A stretch of DNA of 64,000 bases, taken from the IMG/VR virus record IMGVR_UViG_3300025450_001231. The stretch is one strand, 5' to 3'. The notes beneath the pieces were generated by a model. The model saw nothing but the letters and a program-made list of their open reading frames with translations, made no database searches and had not been told where the DNA came from. This document shows, one piece after another, positions 4,326-36,278 of this stretch (position 1 is the stretch's first letter; each line of letters begins with the position of its first letter). This DNA is from a virus (Duplodnaviria; Caudoviricetes). A program made the translations under genes and the position numbers.

Positions 4326-4331
4326 TAAATA
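4326..4331 (+). promoter_or_regulatory. T4-late-type promoter core TAAATA
   Basis: gcTAAATA lies 24 nt before the ATG at 4356. The motif recurs in almost every intergenic gap. Confidence 0.6.
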
Positions 4332-4355
4332 TACAAAGCCATATGAGATTACGGG

Positions 4356-7300
4356 ATGACACAACAGATAATTAACCTTGGAACCGGTCCAAATACACAG
4401 ACCGGAGAGACAATCCTAACTGCATTCGTTAAAGTTAACGACAACTTTACCGAACTTTATGCGGCTCTCCAAGGTAACGGCGCCGATAATCTAATCGGCA
4501 ACACCATAACAGCCAATAATTTTGTTACAACTGGTAACATCAGAACTGGTAATATTGCAGCTTATGGTAATATTGCTACAATAGGCAATATTATAGCCAG
4601 CGGATTCTTCTATCCCAACGGTAAATCAATACTAGGTACAGATGCAATCAACACAGATTTGTTGCCGTTAACGGGCAACATATTCAGTATAGGTTCCAAT
4701 GCATATCCATGGGCTGCAGCAACCATTGCTAATAGTATTACATTAGGTGGTCATGTATTAGAGTTTAACGCTCAAAATATTCTAACAGTTGATGGAATAC
4801 CATTTAGAGGTAGCTACAGTGATGCTAACGTAGCTGCTTATTTGCCATACTATGGCGGTCCCATAACAGTATCAAATATCTATATTAACAGTACTGATAT
4901 TACAACGGACGGGACACATTTATTTGTCAATGGTTCGTTAGTAGCTGGTAATTACAATAATTCTAATGTGGCAGCCTTTTTACCTACCTATGGTGGACAG
5001 ATATCTGCTTCTAATATTGATCTCGGCGGATACGGTATTACAACAGACGGTAATACAATATATCTAAATGGCAAGTCGATTCAAAGTAATTATGGTGATG
5101 CAAATGTAAGAGCACTGTTACCGACTTATTCCGGAAACTTAAATAGTATCAACGGAATTACAGCATCTAACCTTACTGCCAATAATGCCAGTATTAGTAA
5201 TGTACTTTATTTAGATACCAGTACAATCACTGCAGTAAAAAATACATTATATGTAAACGGTGTACCAATTACTGGTACGTATACTAACTTATCGGTTGCC
5301 GCTTATTTAGATACTTACTTGCCAGCACATAGTGGTAACTTAAATGCTATCGACAACTTAAATGCCAATACTGCAAACATCTACCAAACATTATATTTGA
5401 ATGGATCGGCGCTAACGGTTGTTAATAATCAATTGTTTGCAAACGGTGTGCCCATTACTGAAACATACAGTAATACAAACGTTCATTCATACTTGCCAAC
5501 ATATACTGGTACACTAAACAATTTAACAAGTGTTAGCAGTAATGTATTAGTAGCAACAGCCAATTTGGTATTAGATGGTGCAACACTAACAGTAGTAAAT
5601 AATCAACTATACAGTAACGGGATTCCAATTTCTGGTACTTATAGCAATGCCAACGTAGCACAGTACTTGCCAATTTATTTTGGCAATATGAATTTAGTTA
5701 ATAACTTAACTGCTAATATTGTTGAAACAGTTAAAAATCTGGTATTGGATTCTACCAGCGAAGTTGTTGGTAATATTATTCCTAGTTTAGATTTAACTTA
5801 TACCTTAGGTAATACCACAAATAGATTTAAGAGTTTATATGTCGGTGGCAATACAATTTATATTGGCAATCAATCGATATCAAGCAATGCTACACAAATT
5901 ACTCTTAGTAATGCTGTTAGCACAGGCAATGGTTTCTTTGGCGGCAATGTTTACATTTCTGGATTTGCAAATGTAACTGGAGATATTACTGCCAATAATA
6001 TAAATGCCAATACAAATATTCTTGCTGGAGGCAAAGTTGCAGTAGTTGGTACCATTGATGCGGATAGTAACATCACTGGCGCAAATTTAATCAGTAACGG
6101 CACAGTTAGTACTGGTACCTTAACAGTTGCAACAACTGCAACTGTAACTGGCAATGCTACTGTTGGAAACTTAATTACTTCAGGTAATATAAGCGGCGTT
6201 AATACATTATTTGCCAATGCTGCTAATTTAATTGGAAATCTTACTGCTGGTAATTTAACTTCTGCGGGTACGTTGACAATTGGTACAATAACTGCCAATG
6301 GCAATATAACCACAACTGGATCAATTAATTCAACTGGTGGCATAACCGGCGGAAATATTACCAGTAATGGATATGTTAGTACATCTACTTTATATGTTGC
6401 ATCTACTGCAAATATTGCAAGCAATTTAACTGCTGGTAATATATCTACCTTAGGTAATGTAGCTGCTGGTTACTTTATCGGTAATGGTAGTTTATTAACA
6501 GGAATTGATGCTACACAAATTAGATACCAATTGTTATCTAATGTAAAAGTTGGCAGTGATGGAAATATTACATTTAGTACTAATACTAATCCCAACACCG
6601 CAGTATTCAGTGATCAAGCATTTACATTCTACAGAGATTTATTTGTAGATGGTAATATTGTTGCTACCGGAAGTATTACTGCAAACGGTAATTTAATATT
6701 AGGAAATGCTGCAACTGACACAGTTCAGTTCGGAGCAGAAGTTAGCAGTGATATACTACCTAGTCTAACACTCACTTATAATTTAGGTAGTCCCGCTAAC
6801 CAATGGAAAGGTATATATGCAGGTACTGCTAATGTTACTACATTAACTGCAAGCGGAAATATAACTGCTGGTAATATTGCTACTAACGGTTCTGCAAATA
6901 TCGGAACATTAACAGTAACCAATACTGCCACAATATCAGGTAATTTGTCGGCAGGTAATATTTCTACACTGGGCAATATTACTGCTAACTCAGTTACTGC
7001 AACTGGTAACATATCTGCAGCGTACTTTAGTGGAACTTTTGTTGGTAATATTGTTAGTAATAACTTATTAGGCAATACAATTCCTTTAGGAACTCCTATA
7101 GATCAAAACTTTGTAAATGGTGCAATTGGTACTTGGACCAGTACCACTTCGGTTACTGATGCTATTGACCAATTAAACGAAGCAATGCTTAACATACAGG
7201 CCAACACATATGTTAAGAGCACAAGTTTTATTGCTACTCCTACCAGTGGTGGCGCAGGCACATTGGTTACATTAACCATTAGTTCAGTAGGAAACCCAAA

Positions 7301-9470
7301 TCATTATAATGTAAATTGGGGAGATGGCGGGTTCAGCAATGCAGTTACTACAGTAACTCCTAGTTATACATATACCAATAATGCACTAAGTCCATTTACA
7401 GTTTCTGTTACTGCTTATAATAATCTTGGTTATGGTGCTGGTAGTAGTGCTAGTTTTACACGTACGAATTATATTGTAATTTATACTGCTGATCCTGTTA
7501 TGGGATTTGGACTGTACAGAGCAAATGTTGGCGGGTCTTCGTTGTCCGGCAACAATCTTTATACCAATATTGGCCAACCGATTTATCTACAGAACAGTAC
7601 AACAAACACAACAATGGCCAATGTTACTTACACTATTAACTTTGGTGACGGTACTGCAAATGCAGGTGTAAGTAGTGATAGTCAACCCGGCGGTGTGTTA
7701 GGTAGTAGATATGCTTACACCTACAGTAACAGCAGTGGAACAAGTCAAGATACTGTTACATTAACACTGACCAGTCACACCACTGCAAATCCTGCAAGTA
7801 TTCCAAGGAATACTACTGCATTGCTAAAAGTATACAATCCAAATATTTCAGCTCCAGATGGATTAAGTGCAAAAACAATTACCTTCACTGGTAATACTGG
7901 TACAGGTCCTTACTTGGCAGCAAACTTTGCCAATAATACCAACGGTGCAGTTACTATTACTGCTGGTAATCCTATTGCTAGAACCGTAGCAAATACTGGC
8001 ACAGTTAACACAGTAACAATGTCTTCTTATGCTTATAATGCATCAGCTGGTACATTGTCTGCTTATGTAAACAACAGTAATAACGGAAATGTTTCATTGT
8101 CAATAAGTGACAACTCCAGCACATATGGTGCATTGGTTGTTGCTGGCGAAAGTGATTATAATTTATTAACCAATGCAGGTGTGTCGACTACTTTTGCAGC
8201 ATCGACTTATGCACCTGGGCTATATCAAGGCTTTGAAGCATACATTGCTGCAAATGCCAGCACATTGAACAGTGGCGTAAACAATTTCAAATTATCACAT
8301 TCTACCACAGGTAATACAAATGTTGTGGAATTTGCCAAAGACTTTTTAACAGTTACTCCGTCAATTGATTTAACCAGTGCACACATTTATGAAAGTGCTG
8401 CTGGTACATATAGATATATTTCTGGTATACCTTATTATAATACAGGTAGCCCTCAGGTTACTGTTAGCGGTGTCAAAATATACAATTGGATTGGTCAAAC
8501 ATATTCTGGACCAGTTAGTTCAGTAAATCCATTTACTGTAAATCCTGGAACAAATATAGAAAGCACTAGCGGTAATATTATTGTTTCCCAGACCAAAACT
8601 TATGGTAACTTGGACGGTAATGTAACATATTTGAGCGGAGGAGTTCCATTGGCGAATACTGGAACTGTTAGCAGCTATTCCATTGGAAATCAAACTGTAA
8701 ATATCGGAGGTGTTGCCAGTACTGCAGCAGTTCAAACATTGGCTTTTGTTGCCAACAATGTAAACGGAACAGGTACCAGTTCAACTTATGCAACAGCAAA
8801 CATACAGGTGTTTAATGCTACTCCGTCGGGATTTGTTGAAACTGCAATACCTTGTACAATAACCGATACCAATGGTGCAAATGCTGCTCCTGCAATTCGT
8901 ATAGTAATAAGTGGAGCCAGTGGAGCAACGCCTGCGTATTCTAGTAGTACAAATTATTATGCAAACCGTGTATGGAGTGGAGCACAAACAGTTGCTGGAA
9001 CCGATGAAGCAGTAGTTCGTTGGAATCAATTAAAATTCTTTAACACAGATTTAAGTACAGGCTACTTGCCAGTGGGACCAAACTTAGCCACTGGTCGTAG
9101 TAGCGGGTACCAATACTTCCGTGGTGCGTTTGCTCGTACAGGGCGCAATAGTTGGAATGTTACTATTACTGGAAAAATATCTGGACTAAAATTTGCAGTG
9201 CCAGGTACCAGCATAGACACACTGCCTTATACCACCAATGGTTGGTTAGATGCTACAGTTGCATATTACGGATCTGGTGTTGCTGGAGCATTTACTAGTG
9301 GGTGTGCAACCTCTACTCCAGTTCCGATAAGTACAGTAATATCTGGGACAACTTACGGAATAACATTAGGTACAGGTAGTACAAGTGCCCCGGGCAATAC
9401 TGGTAACCAAGTTTTATTCAGTATTGTATTGGGTCCTACAGATTATATAACCTCTTGGAGTTTTAGTTAA
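4356..9470 (+). CDS. Large virion structural/fibre protein (cassette gene A1): gp9/gp10-like N-terminus, beta-repeat shaft, two PKD-like domains, conserved C-terminal domain
   Basis: 1704 aa. The N-terminus [31 protein letters not shown] resembles T4 gp10/gp9 N-termini. PKD-like motifs are YNVNWGDG and YTINFGDG. The C-terminal STGYLPVGP...NGWLD domain is shared with 25221..28988. Confidence 0.8.
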
Positions 9471-12400
9471 TGGCAGTCTCAGATACACAAAAAGTTGATT
9501 ACCTTTGGAAAAAGATAGGTTATGGCGCGACTAAAACCACGCTAGGTAATCTGAGACAAGGGTATGAGGAGCCGAATCCAAGCCCTTTGTTGTTACGTGG
9601 TGACCACGTATGGACACAGTCTGGACAGATCCCTACTCCAATTCCCAGTGCCAACACCAGTATTGTTGCAGTTTACAATAATAGTTTGAATAATGTTGTC
9701 CAGTGTACAATGGATAATACTGTTCTTACCAACATCACTTGGAATACTGGTCTGACAAATTGGATTCCTCCAGAAATAGATCCCAGCTATTTACTACAGG
9801 TATTCATTGCCAACAGCACCGGCATTAACGGAAATTTATCAGGTAAGTCATACACACAAATACAAGCCGCTGGAATTAACAACGACGGTTGGTTCTTTGA
9901 TTACCAGTCTGGTATATTAAACTTCAATGATGCTAATGTTCCCGCTGGATTAATCACTGGTAAAAGCATTTATGTAACCGGTGCACGATATACTGGACAA
10001 TTTGGTGTAACTGGCACCAGTACTGGATCTTTTGGTAATCTTTCTTTTGCTAATACTACTATTAGCACTACCAGTACCAACGGTAATTTGGTATTATCTC
10101 CCAACGGTACTGGGGTAGTTTATATACAAAATGGTGCAGTAGTTAATGGCAATGTAACTGCCAATTACTTTATCGGTAACGGTGCTTACTTAACCAATGT
10201 TCCTGCTAATTCTATTACAGGATTAGATTTAAGTAGAATCTATAACGGTAATACCAATGTTGCAACTTATGCAGACGGTAATGCCACTATCAGCAGTTAC
10301 GGCTACGGAAATATTGCAACATTTAATAATACTGCAATTACCTTTTATAGAGACTTTAATGTAGCAGGAAATATTGTTGCAACTGGTAGTATTACTGCTA
10401 ACGGCAATTTGATATTAGGTAACAGAACAACTGATACAGTTGTGTTTGGAGCAGAAGTCAATAGTGATATTATACCGTCGATCACCAATACATATAATCT
10501 TGGTAATGTTTCTTATCAGTGGAATGCCATTTATTCGCAGTCTGGTTACATATCTGCAAATCTTACAGCCGGTAATATCAGTACTGGTGCATTGTCAGCT
10601 AATACTATTTCTGCCACTGGCAATTTGTCTGCAGGAAATATAACAACAACTGGCACACTAACTGCTGGTAATATTAACAGCAACGGAACAATAACTGCAG
10701 GATCTTTTGTTGGTAACTTTACCGGAAATATTACCGCTAACATTACAGCTGCAGGACAAGATACTTTTGTACTGTTTAACGACGGTGGTATAATAAGTGC
10801 AAATGCAGGGCTTGCATTTAGCAAAACCAGTAACTTGTTAGCAGTTGGTTCTACTGTTTTAGTTGGGTCCGGAATCGGCGGTAATGTAACAGGTGCAAAT
10901 TTAATTCTTGCTAATATAGTTGTTGCAAATAATACATTTACTGGACCGATTGGTGCAATTGCGCCAAACACTGCAATATTTACAAGCGAAAGTGTTAGCG
11001 GTAATTCTGTAGTAAACGGATTAACTGTTAACACCAGTGCAGTAATTGGCACAACATTACAAGCAAAAAGCGGATTACAAAATACAGTAATTGGTAATGT
11101 AACACCCAACACTGGTAATTTTACTAATATAACCGCAAGTGCAGGCGCCAATGTTACAGGAAATCTTACTGTAGATAGTATAACAGTCAATAGTTCTGTA
11201 GTAACAGGTAGAACATTACAAGCATTGGGCGGCATACAAAATACAGCAATTGGTAATAGTTATGCTAGTACCGGTTCTTTTACTACACTAACATCTGGTG
11301 GATTGGTAACATTTAATACTGGATACGATTCAGGCACTAGTTATATTAATGGTACTAGTCAAAATACTTTTGCAGTCCGCGGCGAGCAAGTTGGCGTTAA
11401 CACCATTAGTTGGGTACCAAATGCAAGTTTCCAAATTAACGGTACAGATAGTTTATTATTACCAGTAGGTAATGTATTACAAAGACCAGCAACTGCAACT
11501 GCTGGTATGATAAGATACAATTCTCTTTTGAATAATATAGAATGGTTTGATGGTAATGTATGGACAGTTCCTATTACATCATTTAGTGTAGCCACTTCTA
11601 ATATTCAATACGGAGACGGATCAAGTACACGATTCACATTGCCTGTTGGTAATGCAACTACTGCAGGTACTATGGTTAGTATCAATGGTATTGTACAAGA
11701 ACCTATTAATTCGTATACTGTGACTGATTCTTATGTAGATTTTACAGAAGCACCATTGGATACTGATGTAATTGATTTTAGAATATTTACATTAACTCCG
11801 TCTGTTATAGTTGATGCAGGTAATATTAGTAATATTAGTTTTAGTGGCGGAGGCGGAGCAGCTGCAACAGTAGTCGGTAATACGGCACCTACAAGTCCTA
11901 CAATAGGACAATTATGGTATGATAATTCAACAGGACGAACATACATATATTATTCTGGAAGTTGGGTAGAAGCTAATCCAAGCGCACCAGGACCCAGTGG
12001 GCCACAAGGTCCAATTGGTAGTACTGGCCCAAGCGGACCACAAGGGCCTTCTGGCCCAAGCGGACCTCCCGGACCCAGTGGCGGACCAAGCGGAGCACAA
12101 GGACCACAAGGACCAACAGGGACTGCCGGACCACAAGGACCAACAGGGACTGCCGGACCACAAGGACCAACAGGGACTGCCGGACCACAAGGACCACAAG
12201 GACCAACAGGGACTGCCGGACCACAAGGACCACAAGGACCAACAGGGACTGCCGGACCACAAGGACCAACTGGCACGTTTTCAGGCACATTAACTGCCAA
12301 TATTAACGGCGCAGGATACACACTTACCAATGTGTCTACAGTTACTAGTACTGGTAATATAACTGCTAACAATATAGTAAGTAATACATTTACCTATGCT

Positions 12401-13417
12401 AACGGTGTCAGTATATTAACAGGAATTGTTGCAGGCGGAACAAATTACAGCAATGCTAATGTATTTTCCTATCTAGGATCAAACAGCAATGTTGCTATAA
12501 CTACCACTGGAAATGTGACTGCTAATAATTTTATAGGTAACGGTGCAAATTTAACCGGCTTAAATTATAACCAGACTGGTAATATCTATGGAACACAACC
12601 CAATGTAACATTAGTCGCTGGTAATTATTCATATGTTTTTGATAACACAGGTAATTTGACTATTCCTTCAGGCGGGGACATTTTGTTGCCTACTGCTAAT
12701 TCTACAATTACAATGACCGGTAATATTGTTGTTGGTAATGTTATTGCTGCTGGATCAAGCGGACCCAAGACACGTTTCTTATGGGACACTTGGCAAGCTA
12801 ATTCTACATCGGCATTGAGCTCATTTACTCCAAGTGGTACCATTGGTGGTAATGCTACCTGGGATAGCACACAAGCATATGGATTAAAACTAACCACAAC
12901 AAGTACTTCACAGTCTGGCTACATTAACTGGAACAGTAGTACAATCAATTATAACTATGATATGGTTATAACTGCTAGTATTGGTGCTAGTGGAGGAACC
13001 GGTGCAGATGGACAATGGATCTACTTTGGATCTAATGCTGCCATCACAGGTAATCCCGGTAATACCACCACTTATGGTGGCATTGCGGTTATGAACCATT
13101 ATTATAGTAGTTCAAGTCAGTTTGAAGTTTATGTTGGCGGTACACAAATTAATATTCCCTATATTGGTAACGGTAACTATGTAACATCTGGAGTTACATT
13201 ATGGAACGCCAGTTACACCAGTTTCTATAATCTAACACTGAAAATACGCAAGATACAGAACGGCAACCGTATGTTAGAAGTATATATCAATGAAATATAT
13301 CAAGGATCAGTCAACATTGGTAGTTGGACTCCATCTGGAAATTACTTTGGTGTAGCGGCATACACTGGAGGATCCACTGCTCAAAACTGGGTACGTCAAC
13401 TAAAGATAGATTGGTAA
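9470..13417 (+). CDS. Fibre protein (cassette gene B1): conserved N-terminal domain, beta shaft, collagen segment, C-terminal lectin-like domain
   Basis: 1315 aa. The start overlaps the upstream stop (TAATG at 9468-9472). The N-terminus [15 protein letters not shown] is shared with 28991. Collagen lies at ~11990-12275, and the aromatic-rich beta C-terminus resembles ConA-type lectins. Confidence 0.8.
11990..12275 (+). repeat. Collagen-like run containing five near-exact GGACCACAAGGACCAACAGGGACTGCC units
   Basis: Directly visible tandem DNA repeats, some with an extra 9-nt GGACCACAA. Confidence 0.9.
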
Positions 13418-13418
13418 T

Positions 13419-14135
13419 ATGATAATTTCTGGTGTCAATCTAATTAATGTTGGGTATGTGCGGGACACACCGCCTATCGTTACCTCAGGAACATTGCTAT
13501 ATCTTGATGCCGGTAATTCGGCTAGTTATCCAGGTACAGGCGGTACTTGGTATGATCTAAGCGGAAATAACAATAATACTTTTTCATCAAGCAATACAGT
13601 ATTCAATTCAGCCAATGGCGGATATTTTAATTTTACTGACCCAGGATGGTTTCAAACAACCAGTTCAAAATATAATGTAACATACACTGGTAAGAGTATT
13701 TTTATGGCTGGTAAACTAACTGGTGCCATGGGATCTGGCACATACCGTTGTTTGTTTGGTAGCAACGGAGCCAATAGAAATTTCAATTTGTATTTTTATT
13801 ATACAGGTAGTGCATACGAATTACATTTTGCACAAGGTTATGGCGGTGGCTCGGGAGGCATAAGCACTCCGTTGACTTATACTTTTGGTAACTGGTTTAC
13901 CTGTGGAGTCACAATGACTACGGATGGCACAATAACTTACTACTTTAACGGCCAGCAGGTCAGTATATCATCTGGAACATTTTATCAATATCTAACTACA
14001 ACCAGTGAGAACGTTGGGGCAAGCGATAACTATTGGTCTGGTCCTATCAGTGTAACAGCAGTATACAGTAGAGCATTATCGTCTGCAGAAATGCTACAGA
14101 ATCACAACTCAGTTCGATCAAGATACGGTTTGTAG
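13419..14135 (+). CDS. LamG/ConA-like domain protein, putative tip adhesin (cassette gene C1)
   Basis: 238 aa, starting 1 nt after the upstream stop. [29 protein letters not shown]...YFNG and [15 protein letters not shown] are typical phage LamG-like motifs. Confidence 0.8.
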
Positions 14136-14137
14136 TA

Positions 14138-14145
14138 TATAAGTA
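14138..14145 (+). promoter_or_regulatory. Variant late promoter TATAAGTA
   Basis: One mismatch to TATAAATA, 18 nt before the ATG at 14164, followed by an SD-like AGGA. Confidence 0.45.
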
Positions 14146-14163
14146 TTAATAATAGGAACAAAA

Positions 14164-15039
14164 ATGCCATTAAATTTTCCAGGATCAGCAACAACAGGTG
14201 CAACATATACCGGACCGAACGGAGTTATATACACTTTTGACGGAAATGTTTGGAATGGTTCGGCTCCTACTGTTACTGGACCACAAGGTCCAATTGGTAA
14301 CGCTGGACCACAAGGACCACAAGGTCCGATTGGTAATGTTGGCCCGAGTGGCCCAAGCGGAGTACAAGGACCACAAGGACCACAAGGTCCCATTGGTAAT
14401 ACTGGGCCACAAGGGCCTTCAGGTGGAGGTTCACAAGGACCACAAGGACCTCAAGGACCACTTGGTAATGCAGGACCGCAAGGACCACAGGGACCAATTG
14501 GTAATATTGGACCACAAGGGCCACAAGGCCCACAAGGAACTGTAGGATCACAAGGCCCTCAGGGACCAATCGGTAATACAGGAGCCCAAGGACCACAAGG
14601 CCCAACCGGACCTAACGCCAATCAAACTTTGAACACCAGTAGTTCTGTTACTTTTGCTGGAATTACCAGTACTGGCACAATAACAGGTAATGCAAACAGT
14701 AGTGCAACTACATCAACTGGTGTTGGTTATATTGGGATGCCACAAAATACGCAAAGCAGTAATTATACACTGGCATTGACAGACCAAGGTAGCCAACTTT
14801 ATATAACTGGAACTTCAACCTTAACTATCCCAGCAAATAGTAGTGTAGCATTTCCAATTGGGGCCACTGTGGTAATTATAGCAGGACCTAGTGCCACTGT
14901 AACAATATCTTGCGGAGATACTATGTATTTGGCTATATCTGGTACCACTGGATCTCGCACATTAGCAGCATATGGTATGGCAACTGCAACTAAAGTTGCC
15001 AGTACAACTTGGTACATCACTGGCGGGGGATTGACCTAA
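14164..15039 (+). CDS. Short collagen-like fibre protein
   Basis: 291 aa. It begins MPLNFP...YTFDGNVW, has collagen at ~14280-14615, and ends in a compact domain ([10 protein letters not shown]...[14 protein letters not shown]). Confidence 0.8.
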
Positions 15040-15782: not shown

Positions 15783-15916
15783 ATATTTTATGAAATAGAC
15801 TAATAATTTATGATTATAAGCAAGCGGCGTGGGTGGTGAAGTAAACTAAATTAGCAAGAAAAATCTTAAAAAAACCCAGTAAATTGCCCGCTTAGATATA
15901 AAATTTCAATTCATGC

Positions 15917-15922
15917 TAAATA
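15917..15922 (+). promoter_or_regulatory. T4-late-type promoter core TAAATA
   Basis: gcTAAATA lies 26 nt before the ATG at 15949, with AAGG downstream. Confidence 0.6.
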
Positions 15923-24627: not shown

Positions 24628-24630
24628 ATA
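24625..24630 (+). promoter_or_regulatory. TAAATA overlapping the stop codon of 15949..24627
   Basis: It sits immediately before the terminator hairpin. It could be a chance extension of the TAA stop. Confidence 0.4.
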
Positions 24631-24631
24631 G

Positions 24632-24667
24632 TAAGTTAGCTCGAAAGAGCTAACTTATTTTGTTTTT
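24632..24667 (+). terminator. Rho-independent terminator
   Basis: Perfect 11-bp stem TAAGTTAGCTC / GAGCTAACTTA with a GAAA loop, followed by TTTTGTTTTT, right after the 8.7 kb gene. Confidence 0.8.
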
Positions 24668-24681
24668 ACAAGGATTTAACT

Positions 24682-25176
24682 ATGCCAGAAAATTTAGAAC
24701 TGTACATCGAAGTGCGGGACGGTAAGCCTTTTAATCATCCAATGTTAGGTAGCAATTTTCGAGAATGCTTCCCAGACATTGATGTTAATAACTTGCCTCC
24801 TCAATATGCTCGATTTGTTAGAATTACTCAAGCTGAAGCAAATCTGACTCCGGGATTTTACGAAGTAGTCGACGGGATATATGCGTGGAACGGTAATGCG
24901 TATACTGACGTTTGGTCTATACGTCCAATGACGCAAGAAGAAAAAGCAGAAAAAGTTGCCGAAGGAACAAGGGAATTGTTGGATTATGTCGAGCAATTAA
25001 CTGCGGCCGTTACTTCAGTTGCATCAGACGATGCTACTACACCGGAAGTAAAAACTATTTGCCAAAATTATCTAGTTCAATTGGCAAATTTTACATTTAC
25101 TGATCCAGACCCTAGGGTAACACAGATACCTCCTATACCTCCAGAAATTTTTCCCGAGCCTGATCCTAAAGAATAA
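24682..25176 (+). CDS. Small acidic soluble protein, putative fibre assembly chaperone
   Basis: 164 aa, rich in Glu/Asp/Pro, with a predicted helical C-half (EEKAEKVAEGTRELLDYVEQL). It has an SD-like AAGGA upstream and directly follows the largest shaft gene. The function is inferred from position and composition. Confidence 0.55.
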   Translation: MPENLELYIEVRDGKPFNHPMLGSNFRECFPDIDVNNLPPQYARFVRITQAEANLTPGFYEVVDGIYAWNGNAYTDVWSIRPMTQEEKAEKVAEGTRELLDYVEQLTAAVTSVASDDATTPEVKTICQNYLVQLANFTFTDPDPRVTQIPPIPPEIFPEPDPKE

Positions 25177-25207
25177 TTAACCATTCGATTAGTTTTTCCT
25201 ATATCGA

Positions 25208-25213
25208 TAAATA
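25208..25213 (+). promoter_or_regulatory. T4-late-type promoter core TAAATA
   Basis: gaTAAATA lies 7 nt before the ATG at 25221, with no SD. Confidence 0.6.
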
Positions 25214-25220
25214 CTAAACT

Positions 25221-28200
25221 ATGGCTAATTCGTATCTTTTTGCACAGACTGGCTTTGATGCTGGCAACATATCCATTAACTCCAATGCGAGTTCGCTAAC
25301 TGGAGCCAGTTTAATAAGTTCATTATCTTTTAATGGTAATGAGTTTCGGGGAGATACTTTTTACGGAAACGTCAATGCAACTGCATTACTTGCCAATAGC
25401 ACAGTAAATGCAACTTCATTGGACTCTGGAGCATTTCGATCTCTTGGTGGCGCAAGTATTAACAAAGACTTGTATGTCGGTGGCACTTCTGTATTTGGCG
25501 TTGTTTCTGACAATTATATCAAAGTTTTAGGTGCTTCTAGTGGATCGTATCCTGCACTTTTAGCAGGCGGTATAGATAGCAATGTAGGATTAATTATTGG
25601 TGCAGGCGGAACAGGAAATATTCTGTTTAACGGACTAACCAGTACAACACCTGGAATTGCAACCAACTTCAAAATTTTAATGCCTGTTGATTCAGGATAT
25701 TCGAATTACATAACAGTTGCAGGTGCAACCCCAGGTAGCAATCCGATTATAAGTGCTGACGGTGTCGATGCTGATATCAGCATATATATTACACCAAAAA
25801 GATATGGCGATGTTGTTGTATCCAGCAATATTACTGCTAACGGATTTTTTTATAGTAATGGTATAAGTGTTTCCCAACAAGGACCGCAAGGACCGCAAGG
25901 ACAAACTGGTTCACAAGGTCCGCAAGGACCGCAAGGACAAACCGGAGTTAGTGTAACACTCTTAGGTACTGTAACAGATTATACATTTCTTCCAAATACT
26001 GGAAATACATTAGATAATGGATACATTACTGCAAATACAGGTAATGTTTGGTTCTGGGGTGCAGATAACACATGGCACGATGCCGGAAAAATAGTAGGTC
26101 CAACTGGACCGCAAGGAGTGCAAGGACCGACTGGCCCAACAGGCGCACAAGGACCACAAGGACAACAGGGCAATACTGGAGTACAAGGACCGCAAGGCCC
26201 AACCGGAGTACAAGGACCAACTGGTTTACAAGGTCCTACTGGAGTACAGGGTGTACAAGGACCAACAGGGGTACAAGGACCGCAAGGTCCAACTGGAGTA
26301 CAGGGCCCGCAAGGCCCGATTGGTGTACAAGGTCCACAAGGACCAACAGGACACACTGGTGCTCAAGGACCGCAAGGCGTACAAGGGCCACAAGGACCTA
26401 GCGGAGTTAGTAATGTGCCAGGTCCACAAGGACCACAAGGGCCAATTGGTGATATTGGTGTACAAGGACCCACTGGAGCACAAGGACCGCAAGGACCACA
26501 AGGCGATACTGGACCACAAGGACCATCTGGGGCACAAGGACCGCAAGGACTCACTGGCGTACAGGGACCACAAGGACCACAGGGAAGTTTAGGACTACCT
26601 GGACCACAAGGACCACAAGGTGTTCAAGGAAATGATGGAGCCACCGGAGCACAAGGACCACAAGGCCCTCAGGGACAAACAGGTGCAGATGGTGTTCAAG
26701 GGCCACAAGGACCATCTGGATCGCAAGGACCACAAGGACCAAGCGGAGCACAAGGACCACAAGGACCGACAGGTATATTTTCTGGTAATACAACAGAAAG
26801 AATTGTAACTACTAATACTTCTCCAGCAATTAGCGCCGGAACTGGTGCATTGCAAGTAAGCGGCGGAGCAGGAATTTCAGGAGATTTGTATGTTGGCGGA
26901 AACTTATTTGTTAATAGTTTAAGTACTATTAGTACAACAGTATTAAGTGTACAAGATCCGTTGCTATACTTGAACGGTAATGTAACGTATCCTTATAATT
27001 ACGACATTGGATTCTACAGTCACTTTACCGGTGGTACTGGTAATATCTACCAATACACTGGATTAGTTAGAAACTATGCAGATAACAATTGGTATTTGTT
27101 TAGTAATGCAGCTGAACCAGGCGGCGGATTATTTAATTTAACTGATACTAATATAGCATTAGATAATTTGTATCTTGGAGAAATTAACACCAGTGGTAAT
27201 TCTACCATTAATGGTTTAACTGTCAACACTTCGGCAACAGTAGGCAATACACTAGGTGTTTCTGGCAATATTATTTCTGCTGGTATTGTAACTGACAACT
27301 ATTATTATGCCAATGGTGCTCCGTTATCTTTTGGGTCCGGCGGACTTGCAACAGATCTATTATTAGGAACACCTACATTAGGAAATTTGGTTAGCAATGC
27401 ACTAACATTGACTGCAAATACCAGTATAACCAATAGTATTGCTGAACTGAATTATATATTAGGAAAATTAGTACCGGCCAGCCCACCAACATTCCCTGGC
27501 GGCCAAACTTTATCTACACCATCTGGTTTAGTTGGTCCATTTAGAATGGCCAATTTCACACAAACTGATAACACAAATTCTGGTAACAAGAGTGTAGCAG
27601 CCGGCACTACAGTTAGTGTTGCCCGAACTGCATCTTATACTACTGGGTCTATAACAAATGTTGGACCTGGCAATAGCGGTAATGTTATTGCTTATATTAA
27701 TGGTGCTCCGGCAGGATCAGTGGCATTGACTGGTAGTAGCAACGGAACATATAGTAATTTGGTAATTTTTAATAATCAGGATTATCATAATGTTGTCAGC
27801 ACAGTTACTGCTGGATTCTGGTCATCATTCAGTACATATATGACAGGCACAGTTCATCCAGGCTGGAATGAAGTTAATATTAGAGACTCTGCAGTATCTG
27901 CAAATACTTCCGTTCCTTATTGGTATTATGATAATAATACAGTAACTGGGCCAGTGTTTAGCAATACTGCAATAAGTTTAACAACAAACACAGTAATTTA
28001 TTCAAGTACTATTCCTCACTTTACCAATGCAGCACAATTTACATTAACTGGTAATGTAGCAAAACTCAGTGGAGATACGTTCCCGTCGAGTAATACATTT
28101 ATCACAGGCACTAGTGCAACTGGTTGGCAAACTCCGTCAAGTGTTACTTACAGTTCAGCGACTGGTATAACTTATCCTCTAGCCCGCAATTTATATGTAA

Positions 28201-28988
28201 GTTCGGGTAGTGCTCATTTTAGTACTACTGTAAATATCAGTACAGGATTTAGCTCGACTACTAGTTATCCTAGTTTAGTTGCAGATAATAGTTATGCAAC
28301 AACCAGTGCTGGATTCAATCCCAATGTTACTATTTTATACAAAACAGGTACATCAAGCAATATGGAAGAAACCAGCGTTACTATTGGTAGTACAATTGGT
28401 ACAGGTTCAGGAGCAGCTGTTAGAATTGTAAATCCTGGCAGTACAGATACACCTGCATATACTGGAACTGAATCAGCATTTAATAGTCAAACTGGTCCAT
28501 TATATCCTTACGATGCTACCATAGTTGCTGGAGTATTGAAAAACGATCAAACAAATTACAGTACAGGGTATTTGCCAGTAGGACCAGATTTTAGTAGCGG
28601 AAGAAACAACAACCAGTATTTTACTTTTAAGTTTTCTCGTTCGTCAGTTAGTAAATTTAATATTGCCTGGACCGGCACAATTGCTGGTTTATGGGTAGCA
28701 TTACCTGGAAGCGGAATAGATACAAGTAGTACACTAAACGGTTGGTTAGATTTAAGTATTCCCTATGCTGGATCAGGTCAGCCAGGTGCTGGATCAGGCG
28801 GCAACGGTAGTAACGGTGCTTCTTTGGGAGGAAATGCTCCTTTGAATACCAGCGTTAACGCATCAGTGACTGCAACTTTTGGTACTGCAAGTTCTAGCAC
28901 GACTTCATCACACGAAATATATGTAAGAATTAAACTTACAGCAGGGCAAACTGTATCTGCCCTTTCTTTACAGACAGCGAGTAACTAA
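25221..28988 (+). CDS. Collagen-containing structural protein (cassette gene A2)
   Basis: 1255 aa. Collagen lies at ~25880-25945 and ~26100-26775, and the YPYNY cassette at ~26990. The C-terminal STGYLPVGP...NGWLD domain is paralogous to 4356..9470. Confidence 0.8.
26100..26775 (+). repeat. Collagen-like run (~75 triplets)
   Basis: [12 protein letters not shown] triplets with one GVSNVPG interruption. Confidence 0.9.
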
Positions 28989-28990
28989 TA

Positions 28991-31900
28991 ATGGCAATTT
29001 CTGATTCACAAAAGGTTGACTTACTATATAAAAAATTATTTGGAGTAACCAAAACCGATACTGCATCTGATAAAGCAGCCAGTAATGAAAGTGTTGCCAG
29101 TCCAGCATTTTTGCGTGGGGATACAATTTGGGTTAACAGTGACCAAATACCAGCTACTGCTGCAGATGTAGCAGGCATAGTTCAATCTTATACCGGTACC
29201 AATGCCGTACAAACAACACCTGATACTACCACAGTTCCTGTGAACGGAGTATATCCAACTTGGAAAACAGGAATCTCTAATTGGATCCCACCAGAGTTTG
29301 GTAGTTCTTATTTTGTACAAGTATATGCAGCTCCACCAAATACTCCTAACCCAACTACATCAGGAACTCAATTATACGCTGCAGGCGAAGGCGGAGCAAA
29401 CCCAGGTGAATGGTATTTTGACACAGTCAGCGGAGTATTAAATTTTATTGGGCAAACAATACCGACTGCATTAAATTCAAGCAATGTTATATATATCACC
29501 GGTTATCAGTATATAGGCGGTGTAGGTATTGCAAATGCTGGTAGCTCTACTTCTTCGTATACCAATTCAAATGTTGCTGCATACTTGAGCAGTAACAATA
29601 ATGTAATTATATCTACTACTGGTAATATTTCCACAACTAAAAATATCAATACCAATAGTAATATTATTGCGGGAAATATCACAGTTAACAGCAATATTTC
29701 TACTGGAAATATTACAGTTGCTAACAATGTTACTACCAAAAATATTATTAACAGTGGTAATATTATTAGCGGCAATATTACTTCGAATAGTACTATTACT
29801 GCAACTGGCGATATCACTACAAACGCCAATGTTACTGCTGGAAATGTTATTGCAGTTAACAGTTTTAGCGGAAATTCCATTTTTGCATCAAACTATTTTT
29901 ATAGCAACGGCACAAGTATAATTGCAAGTGGTCCACAAGGACTTCAAGGTCCCCAAGGTCCTAGTGGAGTACAAGGACCCCAAGGTACTCAAGGCCCTCG
30001 AGGTTTACAAGGACCCAGTGGTCCACAAGGTCCTAGTGGAGTACAAGGACCAACTGGAGTACAAGGTCCACAAGGCCCGCAAGGACCAACAGGCATACAA
30101 GGACCAACTGGAGTACAAGGACCACAAGGTGTGCAAGGACCAACAGGCATACAAGGACCAACTGGACTACAAGGACCAACTGGAGTACAAGGACCAACTG
30201 GAGTACAAGGACCACAAGGTGTGCAAGGACCAACAGGCATACAAGGACCAACTGGACTACAAGGTCCTAGCGGAGCACAAGGACCGCAAGGCGTGCAAGG
30301 ACCAACAGGCATACAAGGACCAACTGGACTACAAGGACCAACTGGAGTACAAGGACCGAGCGGAGTACAAGGGCCAACAGGCATACAAGGACCAACTGGA
30401 CTACAAGGTCCAACAGGGCTACAAGGTCCTAGTGGAGTTCAAGGACCAACTGGCATACAAGGGCCAACAGGGCTACAAGGTCCTAGCGGAGTACAAGGAC
30501 CAACTGGTGCGCAAGGACCACAAGGTCCTAGCGGAGCGCAAGGACCACAGGGACCTAGTGGAAGTAATGGCACACCTGGTACACAAGGACCACAAGGACC
30601 ACAGGGACCTAGTGGAAGTAATGGCACACCTGGTACACAAGGACCACAAGGACCGACTGGTAATCAAGGTCCAACAGGACCACAAGGACCTAGTGGATTA
30701 AACGGACCACAAGGGCCTTCGGGCCCAACTGGTGTATTTTCTGGAACTACTACCCAACAGATTATAACAACAAACACAACTCCGTCAACTAATACTACTA
30801 CTGGGGCATTACAGGTAATTGGAGGCGCGGGCATTGGCGGCAATTTATATGTAGGTGGTACGGCATTTGTCAATGTCAACGCAAGTACTATTAGTGTTAA
30901 TAGTATTACCAATGCTAGCTCTATATCTTCTTCCGCATTTTGGGGAGGAACATTTTACGGAAATGTTATTGCAACTACATTAAGTGCTAATAGTACAGTT
31001 AATTCTACTGGTTTAGGTACTGGTGCAATAACCACATTAGGTGGTGCAAGTGTTCAGCAAGATTTATATGTTGGCGGTACCATTTATGCCAACACACTCA
31101 CTACTGTTAACAAAACTATATTATCAGTTACTGATCCGTTATTATATTTGACATCAAGTAATGTATATCCTTACAATTATGATGTTGGTTTTTATAGTCA
31201 TTTTGTAGGAGGCACAACTGCCAATGCCAATGCAAATATATATCAGCATACTGGTTTAATTAGAAATTATGTAGACAATAGTTGGTATTTGTTTAGCAAT
31301 GCTACTGAACCTGGTGGTGGGTTAGTTGATTTAGCTAATGCAAATTTAATATTAGATACCTTACATCTAAACGGTATTGTTGGTAGTGGAAATTCTACTA
31401 TAAACGGATTAACAGTTAACAGTAGTGCTACTATTGGGACTACCTTAGGTGTAGGCGGAAATATCAGCGCAGCAAATGTAGTTGTACTAAACGGAAATGT
31501 TATTGCTAATGCGTTTTTCTATTCTAATGGATTACAAGCAGTTGGTCCTCAAGGACCACAGGGTGCACAAGGTCCACAAGGCCCGATTGGTGTACAAGGG
31601 CCTACAGGCGTACAAGGACCAACTGGCCCACAAGGTCCTAGCGGAGCACAAGGACCGCAAGGCGTGCAAGGGCCACAAGGTATTACTGGTAATACCGGAG
31701 CACAAGGCCCAACTGGTGTACAAGGACCACAAGGTATTACTGGTAATACCGGAGCACAAGGCCCAACTGGTGTACAAGGACCACAAGGACCACAAGGACC
31801 ACAGGGTATTACTGGTAATACCGGAGCACAAGGCCCAACTGGTGTACAAGGACCACAAGGACCACAGGGTATTACTGGTAATACCGGAGCACAAGGCCCA

Positions 31901-32890
31901 ACTGGTGTACAAGGACCACAAGGACCACAAGGACCACAGGGTATTACTGGCGCAGTAGGACCAACTGGCCCACAAGGAACTACCGGACCACAAGGACCTC
32001 AGGGACAAACAGGTAAAGATGGTGTTCAAGGACCACAGGGACCACAAGGTATTACTGGAAATGTAGGAGCACAAGGGCCACAAGGACCACAAGGTATAAT
32101 TGGTGTGCAAGGACCACAAGGACCAAGCGGAGTACAAGGGCCAACAGGACCACAAGGACCAAGCGGAGCACAAGGACCACAAGGAACCGCCGGCCCACAA
32201 GGTATACAAGGGCCAACTGGGGTACAAGGACCGCAAGGACCACAAGGCGTACAAGGACCCACTGGACCAATTACTGGTAGCAATACACAGGTAATTTTTA
32301 ATGCCAACGGACAACCAGGAGCTAGCAGTAACTTTACTTGGAATTCTCAGGGCAATGTGTTAGTTGCAAATGGTGCTGTAGTTAGTAATACATTGGTAAT
32401 CGGATCAAATATTACCAATGCTCAAACAATTACAGGCAACAGTTCCAGCGTAGTATTTGTTTCTAATTTAGATGTTACCTACGGCCAGTCAACTTTTAGC
32501 TTGACCATGGACCAGATGGCACTATATAGTAATGTTAGCGGAAATGTAACAGTAAATTATCCAGCAACTGTTGGACAATCCCCAGCGGCATTTTATATAG
32601 CAAATATTAGTAATAATTCTTGGTATATTTTTAATAATTTTCCAACTGGACCATCAAGTGCTGTAAACAATTACACTAGATCTGTAGTAATAACATTTGT
32701 TATAAATCAAGGAGCAACCCCCTATATCATCCAAGGATTGAATATTAATGGCACTCCTTATGTCACCAAATGGTTGGGTGGAACTGCCCCAACAGGTACT
32801 GCTAACAAATTAGAAATTATGAGTTTTGTTGCAATAGTAAGCAACGGTTCTGTATTAGCAATAACAGGCCAACTAGCAAGTTACGGATAA
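28991..32890 (+). CDS. Collagen-rich fibre protein (cassette gene B2)
   Basis: 1299 aa, starting 2 nt after the upstream stop. The N-terminus [15 protein letters not shown] is paralogous to 9470. It has two long collagen runs, and its C-terminal domain (VITFVINQG...KWLGGTAP) resembles that of 46474. Confidence 0.8.
29929..30735 (+). repeat. Collagen-like run (~90 triplets)
   Basis: Uninterrupted Gly-X-Y dominated by GPT/G(V/I/L)Q. Confidence 0.9.
31544..32270 (+). repeat. Collagen-like run (~80 triplets) with four [15 protein letters not shown] units
   Basis: Near-identical DNA units are separated by variable numbers of GGACCACAA. Confidence 0.9.
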
Positions 32891-32894
32891 TATA

Positions 32895-35800
32895 ATGAGA
32901 ATATCAAGCATTTCTTACGTAGGAACCCATTTACCGAGACCATTATTGGTTGTAGTGATCTCTACTGGTTCATATAATTTTGCTTATGGGCAACCAGTTA
33001 GTGTAACACCGCTTACTGTAACCGGCGGAATTCCTCCTTATATATATTCGGCAAACACATTGCCGTCAGGACTTTCTATCGGTTCTTCTACTGGCACAAT
33101 CAGTGGAAAAGGTAATGCTCTAAGTGGAAATACTGCTTACCAAATTGTTGTTACTGACAGCACTCCAATTAAGCCACAAACATCAAATGCAAATATCTAT
33201 ATATCAATGGTTGCAACTGTACCTTGTGCACCTAGTATAGTATCTGCAACAGATGTTAATACAACTGCAGTTCAATTGATTTATACTGCACCAACTAACA
33301 ACGGTGGTTATCCAATTACCAGCTACATAGCAACAAGTAGTCCAGGTTCAATCCACGCAACATTAAGTACTGCAGGTAATGGAACCATGACGGTAACTGG
33401 TTTGACCACTGGTACTACTTATGCATTTACAGTGGCTGCGGTTAACAGTATTGGTACAGGACAACCTAGTGCGTGTAGTTCAAGTGTTTTGGTTGCTACT
33501 GTGCCAAATGTGGTAGTAGTTGGAACTCCTATCGTCAAACAAAATGTTGGAATGGCTATACCTTATACTGCGCCTAACAATAACGGTAGTGCTATTAGAT
33601 ACTTTGTAGCAAATGCAAATCCTGGCGGCATCACTGCAACTTTGAGTACTTCTAGTTCGGGCACAATTACTGTAACAGGATTGACCAAAGGTTCGTATTA
33701 TACATTCACAGTTACCGCAACAAATGGTGTAGGAACCAGTAATGTTAGTGCAAATACCGCTTGTAAACCATATGGTACAGTGCCCAATGCAGTTGTTATA
33801 TCAAATGTAGTACATATTAACAGTTCTCTTGGAAATACGGCCATCGGAGTTGTTTGGAATTTTGCAACCTGTTGCCATACTGGATTTACTCCTACGGCAA
33901 TTGTGGCAACAAGTCACCCAGGATGCCGAACAGCCACAGTAACAAGTTCAGCATCGCCCACAATTACAGTAACAGGATTAACTCCTGCTACTACATATTT
34001 TTTCACTGCATATGCAGTTAACGCAGTTGGACAAGGTTGTTGCAGTACACCTAGTGGATGTATCAACACCTACGGACCTCCAATTAGTCTAAGACAACCA
34101 ACAATAAACACCGTTATTCCTGGTGGATCCTATATTGTTGGCAACGCTATTCAAGTGGCGACTGGCGCTAATGTACCAAATTGTTGGTCGGCTTGTGGTC
34201 CCATTTTTGGTTGGACTTATCAATGGTTTAGATCTTGCGGTACATCATTAACTTCTAATCTTGCTCCTAGTACATATACTCCAGTATCCGGAGATGCTGG
34301 CAAGAACATTTATTTTGTACAAACAGCGGTAAGTTTATACGGATTCGGTAACACATCCGCTAATTCAAATTTAAGTCCTATTATTGGTTCTTCTAAGCCA
34401 CTCACTGCGCCTAATATTACCTCTGCAACTGGACAAGCTCCGTCGGGATATGCAAATATTACATTCACTGCTCCTACGTGTACTGGCGGTTCTACCATTA
34501 CTTCTTATGTGGTTCAAGAAAATCCGCAATCCGGAACTTGTCTTTCAACAAGATTTTCTACAATTAGTCAGTCTGGGGCAGGTACCATTACTATATCTGG
34601 ATTAATACCTGGAACAACATATAAATTTTATATTGCAGCAATTAATAGTTATGGTCAAGGACCATATAGCAATGCTAGTCCCTGTACGTTTACTTGGTAT
34701 TCGCCACAACTTAGTGCAAATCCAAGCATTGCTGGAACTGTTCGCAGCGGATCAACATTGACGGCAAACATAGGTACCTGGGCCAGCTATCCAGCAGCAA
34801 CATATGCTAATCAATGGTACAGGGGAAGTAGTGCTATTGGTGGAGCAACTGGGTCAACTTATGCGTTGACCAATTGTGATTTAGGATCAACAATAAAATT
34901 TCAAGTTACAGCCACAAATCCAATTGGTAGCAATGTAGCCCAAAGTCCGGCTACTGGAACAGTTCAGCCAGTACAGTTATCATTGACTGTTAACACAAGC
35001 GCATATAATTTTACAATAGGAAGTGCATATTCTTCTACTCCAGCAACAGCATCTGGAGGATTTGGCAACATAACATATGCAATTAGTGGAAATACATTGC
35101 CGACAGGATTAACTTTTTCCAATGCAGGTTTGTTGTATGGTACACTTACAGGAACGACTACACAAACAAATACTCAATATACCATAACTGCTACCTGTTC
35201 TTATTCAACTCCGCAACACGCAACAGGTACTATTGCTATAACAGTAAATGCCGCTCCACTTAGTGTTAGTTTCACTTGCAAAGGAACTTATAATCTTACA
35301 CTCAATCAATCTGCAGGTACAAATACCATAGTCAACTCGGTTAGCGGAGGTATACCTCCTTACTCGTATAGTGTATGTACTAGTCTGCCCACTGGTCTTA
35401 CTTTTGCCAATACTTATTTCTCAGGTACACCCACTGCGTTGCACTCACAATCTTTCTATGTATGGAAAGTCAGTGATAGTACTACCCCTACTGCGCAAAG
35501 TCAAACTCGTACCATAGGAATTGGTGTTTATCCAGCAGCATCAACAGTAACTTTTACTGCAGCAGGTACTTATACTTGGAGTGTTCCTAACGGAACAACT
35601 CAAGCAAGTGTTTTAGTAGTTGGCGGTGGTGGTGGCGGAGCAGGTAGCAATTGTTATCTTTCGCCTGGGGCAGGCGGAGGCGGAGCCGCTACTACAGTAT
35701 TAAATAATTTTACTGTAGCGTTTGGTCAAAATTATACAGGTCGAGTTGGTACACCAGGTTCTAAATTAGGAACTGCCGCACAAAGAACTGGGCAACCTTC

Positions 35801-36278
35801 ATACTTCAACGGTACAGGTTCAGGTAATGTAGTAGCCGGTGGTGGCGTTGGCGGTGGCATTGGCATAAACACTAAATCTGGTTCAGTTGGAGGCGGCGGT
35901 GGCGTTGGGCGCGGCAGTTGCGGTGGTGGTGGCGGTTGCGGTGGTACTGGAACCATCGGTGGCCGCGGCGGGGCCGGCGGAACAGGATCAGGGGGTACTA
36001 GCTATTCAGGAGGAGCCGGCGGATTTGCTTATAATACTTTTGTAGGTATAGCTTGCGGAGGAACCAATCCCTACGGTATGAACGGTGGAAAATCCGGACA
36101 ATATACTAACGCTGCAGCTACTAATGGTGTTGGGACGGCGTTAACTATATCTCCCACTACTGGGCCTTACGGTTTTGGTGGCGCTGGTCAAACAGCTAAA
36201 GGTTCGGGCGGCAGTTGCGGCGGAGGCGGAGCAGTAATGATTATATACGGAGGCGCTGGGTGTAACACTATAACTTAG
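32895..36278 (+). CDS. Ig/FN3 multidomain protein with glycine-rich C-terminal domain (cassette gene C2), Cys-rich
   Basis: 1127 aa. It has putative-Ig motifs (LPSGLSIGSSTGTISG, LPTGLTFS), about four FN3-like units (TYAFTVAAVN.IG), Ig-like units (TLTANIGTW...YANQWYRG) and a C-terminal polyglycine domain like 3296. Confidence 0.8.
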   Translation: MRISSISYVGTHLPRPLLVVVISTGSYNFAYGQPVSVTPLTVTGGIPPYIYSANTLPSGLSIGSSTGTISGKGNALSGNTAYQIVVTDSTPIKPQTSNANIYISMVATVPCAPSIVSATDVNTTAVQLIYTAPTNNGGYPITSYIATSSPGSIHATLSTAGNGTMTVTGLTTGTTYAFTVAAVNSIGTGQPSACSSSVLVATVPNVVVVGTPIVKQNVGMAIPYTAPNNNGSAIRYFVANANPGGITATLSTSSSGTITVTGLTKGSYYTFTVTATNGVGTSNVSANTACKPYGTVPNAVVISNVVHINSSLGNTAIGVVWNFATCCHTGFTPTAIVATSHPGCRTATVTSSASPTITVTGLTPATTYFFTAYAVNAVGQGCCSTPSGCINTYGPPISLRQPTINTVIPGGSYIVGNAIQVATGANVPNCWSACGPIFGWTYQWFRSCGTSLTSNLAPSTYTPVSGDAGKNIYFVQTAVSLYGFGNTSANSNLSPIIGSSKPLTAPNITSATGQAPSGYANITFTAPTCTGGSTITSYVVQENPQSGTCLSTRFSTISQSGAGTITISGLIPGTTYKFYIAAINSYGQGPYSNASPCTFTWYSPQLSANPSIAGTVRSGSTLTANIGTWASYPAATYANQWYRGSSAIGGATGSTYALTNCDLGSTIKFQVTATNPIGSNVAQSPATGTVQPVQLSLTVNTSAYNFTIGSAYSSTPATASGGFGNITYAISGNTLPTGLTFSNAGLLYGTLTGTTTQTNTQYTITATCSYSTPQHATGTIAITVNAAPLSVSFTCKGTYNLTLNQSAGTNTIVNSVSGGIPPYSYSVCTSLPTGLTFANTYFSGTPTALHSQSFYVWKVSDSTTPTAQSQTRTIGIGVYPAASTVTFTAAGTYTWSVPNGTTQASVLVVGGGGGGAGSNCYLSPGAGGGGAATTVLNNFTVAFGQNYTGRVGTPGSKLGTAAQRTGQPSYFNGTGSGNVVAGGGVGGGIGINTKSGSVGGGGGVGRGSCGGGGGCGGTGTIGGRGGAGGTGSGGTSYSGGAGGFAYNTFVGIACGGTNPYGMNGGKSGQYTNAAATNGVGTALTISPTTGPYGFGGAGQTAKGSGGSCGGGGAVMIIYGGAGCNTIT

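Follow-up and report, generated by a model that had tools for sequence, protein, structure and literature searches.

The window analysed here is a stretch of 64 kilobases (kb; 64,000 nucleotides, nt) from IMG/VR virus record IMGVR_UViG_3300025450_001231 (Duplodnaviria; Caudoviricetes). Its large open reading frames (ORFs) all lie on the + strand, and nearly all of them encode giant fibre-like proteins. We studied six of these fibre genes, which form two operons, A1-B1-C1 and A2-B2-C2, situated 21 kb apart on the same strand amid repeat-rich and collagen-rich genes. Both A proteins end in a related region of about 500 amino acids (aa) at their extreme C-terminus, here called the A-tail. Both B proteins, encoded by the next gene in each operon, begin with a related domain of about 190 aa at their extreme N-terminus, here called the B-head. 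The two domains recur as a pair of neighbours in many other phages, and we interpret them as a probable connector between fibre segments. All six ORFs were recovered on the + strand at the positions given in a preliminary description of this DNA. The A and B genes and the domains in question, with their matches to PHROG profiles given as expectation values (E), are as follows.

4356-9470, + strand: A1, a 1704-aa fibre protein; from the N- to the C-terminus a weakly T4 gp9/gp10-like start, a repeat shaft, the LGTP helix, PKD-like domains and the A-tail.
7806..9467, + strand: A-tail array of A1, residues 1151-1704 (match to a hidden Markov model, HMM); phrog_8578, E 2e-49.
9470-13417, + strand: B1, a 1315-aa fibre protein; from the N- to the C-terminus the B-head, a shaft, collagen and a globular C-terminal part.
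9470..10039, + strand: B-head of B1, residues 1-190; phrog_9417, E 7.8e-35.
25221-28988, + strand: A2, a 1255-aa fibre protein; from the N- to the C-terminus an N-terminal part, collagen, a shaft, the LGTP helix and the A-tail.
27441..28985, + strand: A-tail array of A2, residues 741-1255; phrog_8578, E 1.2e-86.
28991-32890, + strand: B2, a 1299-aa fibre protein; the B-head, two collagen tracts and globular domains.
28991..29566, + strand: B-head of B2, residues 1-192; phrog_9417, E 1.2e-36.

The relatedness of the domains was established by BLASTP. The C-termini of A1 and A2 (residues 1184-1641 and 772-1186) align over about 470 residues with 32% identity (E 6e-23), and the N-termini of B1 and B2 over about 180 residues with 40% identity (E 7e-29), so both of the shared domains proposed in the preliminary description are borne out. 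The LGTP...LN motif singled out there is equally real, with 15 of 31 residues identical between A1 911-941 and A2 715-744 (E 6e-6); in A1 some 240 aa, with PKD-like domains, separate it from the remaining shared region downstream. The genes are as tightly spaced as had been claimed, with gaps of -1 to 4 nt: the A1 stop and the B1 start overlap by 1 nt (TAATG), and the spacers are 1 nt between B1 and C1, 2 nt between A2 and B2, and 4 nt between B2 and C2.

The domain pair had initially not been recognised as a named family. This is still true of Pfam, searched at E up to 1, and of NCBIfam, neither of which gave a match for the A-tail or the B-head, but both domains are catalogued as PHROG families, 8578 for the A-tail and 9417 for the B-head. 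A1 and A2 match the PHROG 8578 profile at positions about 150-650 of 652, while B1 and B2 match the PHROG 9417 profile from position 1 to about 195 of 231. Both families carry the entry "unknown function". Profile searches of Protein Data Bank (PDB) sequences returned no match for either domain, and neither contains a Pfam match to a tail-fibre assembly chaperone, a gp38 adhesin or Peptidase_S74. The T4 fibre families (gp34-gp37) are absent from the Pfam matches of A1, A2, B1 and B2 at E up to 0.01.

The pairing of the two domains was then examined across genomes, with HMMs built from the window copies and iterated, and with six-frame ORFs mapped at each locus. In a set seeded with the B-head (8 phage records, the window and 80 IMG/VR loci), a gene for an A-tail ended 0-49 nt upstream of all 97 of 97 B-heads. 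In a set seeded with the A-tail (79 further IMG/VR loci, found independently), a B-head followed within 13 nt after 80 of 80 A-tails. A third set comprised the 7 loci present among 185,579 species genomes, all of them in metagenome-assembled genomes (MAGs), and 6 of these 7 were paired. Over all sets 183 of 184 copies are thus paired, with a spacing of 0-3 nt in most loci, and the A-tail ends 4-7 residues before the stop codon in every B-head- and A-tail-seeded locus. The two families occupy at least 560 IMG/VR loci. A scan for the B-head in 1.84 billion representative proteins yielded 1281 matching clusters (50% identity); in each of the best 150 of the 1281 cluster representatives, which are 188-3957 aa long, the B-head begins at residue 1. 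The counts of the two domains are equal in five complete T4-like genomes (1, 2, 1, 1 and 1), and there the two are always adjacent. Among GenBank phages an identical set of 53 records carries both domains: these are the phiCbK-like Dolichocephalovirinae (infecting Caulobacter and Brevundimonas) and the jumbo phages Salicola SCTP-2, Agrobacterium Atu_ph07 and Sinorhizobium Phosso.

The adjacency foreseen in the preliminary description therefore extends across phage genomes, and the domains were found apart in only one of the 184 copies. In this sole exception, locus L173 (3454-4458), the B-head is internal to a protein of 334 aa (residues 91-259) and is preceded by another kind of N-terminal anchor, which the next gene (4728-5831) has as well; there is no A-tail upstream. 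The locus comes from a contig of a low-coverage Rhodobacteraceae MAG. A programmed frameshift or read-through that would fuse A and B was considered and rejected, since spacers of -1, 0, 1, 2 nt and more place the two genes in varying frames; no A-to-B fusion protein was seen among the B-head- and A-tail-seeded loci. One contig binned with a giant-virus MAG (IMGVR_UViG_GVMAG-S-404869-56_000001) also carries a phage fibre pair, and is probably a mis-binned phage contig.

Several phages encode a protein that begins with a B-head and ends in an A-tail. Such link proteins are Colossus gp088, CcrSC gp131, Bambus 04890, Bajun 02310, Atu_ph07 gp325, Phosso 124 and one from an uncultured phage (locus L057). 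The gene upstream of a link ends in an A-tail and the gene downstream starts with a B-head, giving a three-gene chain; chains of this kind occur in phages that are phiCbK-like or Atu_ph07-like and in uncultured ones. A serial connector would predict such a head-to-tail grammar, which would be hard to explain if the roles of the two domains were unrelated.

What surrounds the two domains is highly variable. The N-terminal part of the A proteins measures 83-1843 aa and the C-terminal part of the B proteins 6-2516 aa, and among locus pairs with 60-80% identity in the joint, 52% of the A flanks and 71% of the B flanks have no detectable similarity. An A-tail identity of at least 0.8 comes with a B-head identity of at least 0.67, and a B-head identity of at least 0.8 with an A-tail identity of at least 0.62. 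The two domains are thus passed on as one unit, a conserved island between hypervariable flanks. In the window itself the middles of the fibre proteins had been said to differ completely, as beta shaft with PKD domains in one operon and collagen in the other. This is roughly right. A1 has no Pfam Collagen match, and B1 also carries collagen: the Gly-X-Y repeats of Pfam Collagen were matched in A2 (E 6.5e-32), B1 (E 3.7e-9) and B2 (E 5.1e-78). Residues 700-902 of A1 and 227-424 of B1 are 52% identical.

The start of A1 hints at a baseplate attachment for cassette 1. Its residues 4-70 (window 4365-4565) weakly resemble the N-terminal baseplate-attachment domain of T4 gp9/gp10 (PF07880) at E 0.0017 with 18.9 bits, below the cut-off of 25, and residues 3-39 bear a faint likeness (E 0.27) to the start of a solved "baseplate wedge tail fiber connector" (PDB 9f4a). 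As a general feature of A proteins such an anchor was rejected, as none was detected among the A genes of the five complete genomes.

The third genes of the two operons had been presented as members of a three-gene cassette, with C as a swappable tip.

13419-14135, + strand: C1, a 238-aa ConA-like lectin (Laminin_G_3; Pfam E 2.6e-8); operon neighbour, outside the module.
32895-36278, + strand: C2, a 1127-aa protein with He_PIG, fn3 and Gly_rich_2 (Pfam); operon neighbour, outside the module.

No similarity was found between C1 and C2 (best E 1.3), and their common M(I/R)IS start is trivial, so that C as a matching third member did not hold up. We also ran tblastn against 166 related loci, taking as queries C1, the two ends of C2, the N-terminal parts of both A proteins and the C-terminal parts of both B proteins. 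The search returned one weak match to C1 and four short matches to B2, and C2 was without relatives. As the C genes are not a recurrent feature of these loci, nor are the B C-termini, the C genes were rejected as cassette members and the notion of a cassette with a swappable tip is unsupported. We regard C1 and C2 as unrelated, adhesin-like downstream genes of the same late operons, outside the module.

Promoters had been proposed upstream of both A genes, and T4-late-like boxes are indeed present at both sites.

4320..4334, + strand: late-promoter-like box 5' of A1, TATAGCTAAATATAC, with TAAATATAC at 4326; read from sequence.
25200..25214, + strand: late-promoter-like box 5' of A2, TATATCGATAAATAC, with ATAAATAC at 25207.

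The reference for comparison was the box of T4-type late promoters, TATAAATA, which lies at about -10 of the late transcript start. In the 64 kb, ATAAATAC occurs in only four copies (25207, 36280, 42643 and 51336), all on the + strand, and each stands at most 30 nt 5' of a giant fibre gene, namely A2 and the genes at 36307, 42671 and 51350. Variants of the box are found at 4326, 5' of A1, and at 15917, 5' of gene 15949. Judged by their letters and placement, these boxes look like T4-type late promoters and would mark operon boundaries. No such box was seen between the A, B and C genes of either operon, which fits one transcript per operon. The region's clearest terminator-like site is a 13-bp hairpin followed by a T-run at 24630-24659, directly 3' of a 2892-aa gene (15949-24627), which it would make a single-gene unit.

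We next considered the predicted structures of the two domains. The AlphaFold2 model of the A2 A-tail, with a predicted local distance difference test (pLDDT) of 94.4, is a run of beta-sandwiches that ends in a jelly-roll (model residues 306-515). In the model of the B2 B-head (pLDDT 83.5), residues 5-16 form a helix, the chain then runs extended and with lower confidence to about residue 50, and a beta-sandwich follows. When the PDB was searched with Foldseek, the A-tail matched only generic Ig-like or multidomain structures, with a template modelling (TM) score of at most 0.2, and the B-head had no match at E up to 0.001. With VIA-align, the last A-tail domain matched jelly-roll carbohydrate-binding and MAM-type modules at Z 5.3-6.8, within the noise band, and the best match of the B-head (Z 5.8) was to Ig-like domains of phage tail proteins. 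Among clusters of the AlphaFold database (AFDB) the A-tail has two uncharacterised relatives, and its matches are otherwise generic fn3 or Ig-like proteins. No named fold could be assigned to either domain from the Foldseek, VIA-align and AFDB searches. The best-conserved stretches are the final ~150 residues of A and the first ~40 of B. They fall at the two chain ends proposed to meet, which is suggestive, and the same first ~40 residues have the lowest monomer pLDDT within the conserved part of the B-head, a feature of the model that would likewise be suggestive of a joint. A prediction of the 1:1 complex of the A2 tail (515 aa) with the B2 head (192 aa), performed without controls, gave 0.00 in both runs and counts neither for nor against binding.

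These findings lead us to regard the A-tail/B-head pair as a reusable end-to-end connector of fibre segments, produced from translationally coupled genes, and we consider this reading probable. In this respect the joint postulated in the preliminary description is supported by comparative genomics, without its swappable tip, since the adjacency, the position at the chain ends, the link proteins and the variable flanks all speak for one reusable junction module. According to this model, the two genes would be translated in a coupled way and the B-head would dock on the A-tail, most likely trimer on trimer, because the shafts contain collagen. Docking would join the proximal and distal fibre segments end to end. 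Any shaft could be fused upstream of the A-tail and any distal part downstream of the B-head, which would make the pair a standard connector; link proteins with both domains would extend the chain to three segments, and B proteins made of the B-head alone would cap it. The binding step, its stoichiometry and its position on the virion are all inferred. Several points weigh against this model. The A-tail folds confidently as a monomer, and its predicted jelly-roll, with its resemblance to carbohydrate-binding modules, would fit a receptor-binding tip too. Co-inheritance of adjacent genes is to be expected from linkage alone. Finally, L173 implies that the B-head has no strict need for an A-tail.

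It is tempting to speculate further that the pair is a portable plug-and-socket connector used across tail types, building chains of two, three or more swappable segments, and that paralogous pairs have diverged to orthogonal specificities, each joining only its own partner. The paralogous pairs meant here are cassettes 1 and 2 of the window, and the two junctions of the phiCbK-type three-link chain. Were this so, chimeric receptor-binding fibres could be engineered with a ready-made standard part, and there would be a clue to still unassigned appendages, for instance those of phiCbK and Atu_ph07. We put this forward tentatively, as a possibility that we hold in clearly lower confidence than the connector itself.

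If the pair is not a connector, the B-head could serve the tip of the A protein. The A-tail would then be the receptor-binding distal end of the fibre and the B-head a chaperone or adhesin-attachment domain, in the manner of gp38 or Tfa, which folds or caps the A tip and stays attached, the long B extensions being secondary. This arrangement would suit the many B proteins that consist of the B-head only (185-188 aa) or little more, the jelly-roll at the end of the A-tail, and the downstream gene position, the usual place of tail-fibre assembly genes. Receptor-binding tips, however, are usually the most variable part of a fibre, and the A-tail jelly-roll is where the protein varies least among phages whose hosts are unrelated (Caulobacter, Agrobacterium, Salicola and freshwater bacteria), which would be unusual for such a tip. 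Moreover, the link proteins build chains, the B proteins reach 3957 aa and contain collagen shafts, and, as noted above, Pfam gave no match to tail-fibre assembly or gp38 families. We therefore consider this explanation rather unlikely; it too implies that A and B bind each other, and differs from the connector model only in the purpose of the complex.

Alternatively, the A and B proteins might never touch, but belong to separate fibres or virion parts, their adjacency reflecting an operon core or a stretch of homology that serves recombinational exchange of modules. A conserved island between hypervariable flanks is what would be expected of such a recombination linker, and in L173 the B-head works behind another anchor. 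On the other hand, the near-complete pairing at the extreme C- and N-termini with minimal spacing, the equal copy numbers in complete genomes, the link proteins with one domain at each end, and the maintenance of pairing across myovirus- and siphovirus-type genomes all argue for contact. Crossovers inside the homology patch should in addition give discordant A and B identities, and none were seen at high identity. Separate roles thus seem quite unlikely to us. A recent in-genome tandem duplication and a chance or low-complexity resemblance, which the same-strand position 21 kb apart in repeat-rich and collagen-rich surroundings might suggest, deserve almost no credence and are excluded by the strength of the BLASTP matches in regions that are not low-complexity, by the divergence of the two copies, each nearer to copies in other phages, and by the size of the families. 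In the window, the A-tails are 26% and the B-heads 44% identical to each other, and each pair has nearer relatives elsewhere (65% and 50%). To speak of duplicated cassettes is therefore misleading, and by this comparison the two pairs are old paralogues.

The proposed connector can be compared with known systems. The long tail fibre of T4 consists of a proximal part (gp34), a knee (gp35) and a distal part (gp36/gp37), with gp38 as assembly factor or adhesin. As in T4, consecutive late genes would encode consecutive fibre segments, gene order being assembly order, and the relatives of the window's phage have a T4-type capsid. The two systems differ in that they have no sequence family in common and that no separate hinge protein is evident here, where two terminal domains would form the junction. 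In the branched tailspikes of CBA120 (TSP1-4) and G7C (gp63.1/gp66), N-terminal domains of one receptor-binding protein likewise dock on another in a modular way, as the B-head would, and there is a weak likeness (Z 4.1, within noise) between the B-head sandwich and the N-terminal part of CBA120 TSP4. These tailspikes, however, branch sideways and not from C-terminus to N-terminus, and have no comparably strict next-gene rule. The gp38 of T2 and S16 type and the Tfa of lambda and Mu share with the B-head the prospect of a downstream gene product that binds the C-terminal tip of the upstream fibre. They differ in that there is no homology, that over 1000 aa of additional shaft often come after the B-head, and that link proteins continue the chain.

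Among described phages, phiCbK gp073/gp074 and their counterparts in Dolichocephalovirinae, Atu_ph07 gp326/gp325/gp324, SCTP-2 gp230/gp231 and Phosso 123/124/125 are true homologues (PHROG 8578 and 9417), and keep the A-tail C-terminal and the B-head N-terminal in the next gene. In contrast to the window, where the fibre halves exceed 1000 aa and contain collagen, the phiCbK-like flanks are short (A of ~630 aa, last B of ~230 aa). The pair in phiCbK lies between the capsid genes and gp076, a 2799-aa candidate head filament. Throughout the phiCbK-like loci (L001 gp073-gp076, L002 and L006-L008) the pair or three-link chain always has the capsid genes on one side and the giant lectin-like gp76, the proposed head filament, on the other, and a conserved gene of ~138 aa stands in between. 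The pair is also found ~7 kb from gp23 in G002 and G003, two of the five complete T4-like genomes. Attachment to the head instead of the tail may come into consideration. Mass spectrometry of the Atu_ph07 virion detected gp324 (B-head), gp325 (link) and gp326 (A-tail) (PMC6102473, Table S5). Only eight proteins were identified in the proteome study of phiCbK, and gp73 and gp74 are not among them; the 2012 paper on phiCbK genomics does not mention the two. Our literature search found no structural paper on phiCbK gp73/gp74 and no function or pairing rule for the homologues, which are annotated as hypothetical or with the generic name "tail protein".

Phages are known to have segmented fibres and to exchange receptor-binding parts in a modular way, and connectors that permit the exchange of fibre parts have been characterised in a few model phages only. 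What was already known here is therefore segmented fibres as a kind, and the two domains as PHROGs of unknown function. What we consider new, having found no description of it, is the near-absolute rule that leads from one C-terminus to the next N-terminus, the link proteins, and the spread over T4-like and phiCbK-like phages. The pair is abundant in T4-like jumbo myoviruses and phiCbK-like giant siphoviruses, and the fibre halves that it carries vary in length and composition almost without limit. If the connector model is true, it would allow thousands of giant "hypothetical" fibre genes to be annotated by rule (A proximal, B distal), and would give a testable handle on the uncharacterised virion proteins phiCbK gp73/gp74 and Atu_ph07 gp324-326. 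It would also offer a candidate standard joint for chimeric phage fibres in laboratory work on host range.

The window gave no match by megablast of 24 kb against GenBank phages. The closest relatives of cassette 2 lie on IMG/VR genomes that are complete and 222-525 kb long, and each of the five genomes tested encodes a T4 gp23-type capsid protein. This fits the view that the window belongs to an uncultured T4-like phage. The domains of its fibre genes are collagen, fn3, RCC1, Laminin_G or Gly-rich. A further protein encoded outside the two operons (51350-62689; 3779 aa) has ~28 RCC1 repeats, which form beta-propellers, and ~18 fn3 domains, and its fn3 region is related to C2. Fibre genes 14164, 42671 and 46474 have in common a short N-terminal motif, FP(S/G)SP...Y...W..G..W, and genes 15949 and 36307 have another common N-terminus, with 45% identity over 88 aa; these starts may be further reusable attachment ends. 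Directly 3' of the fibre block, at 62750-64000, lies a gene of the sulfotransferase family, the product of which could modify virion proteins or glycans.

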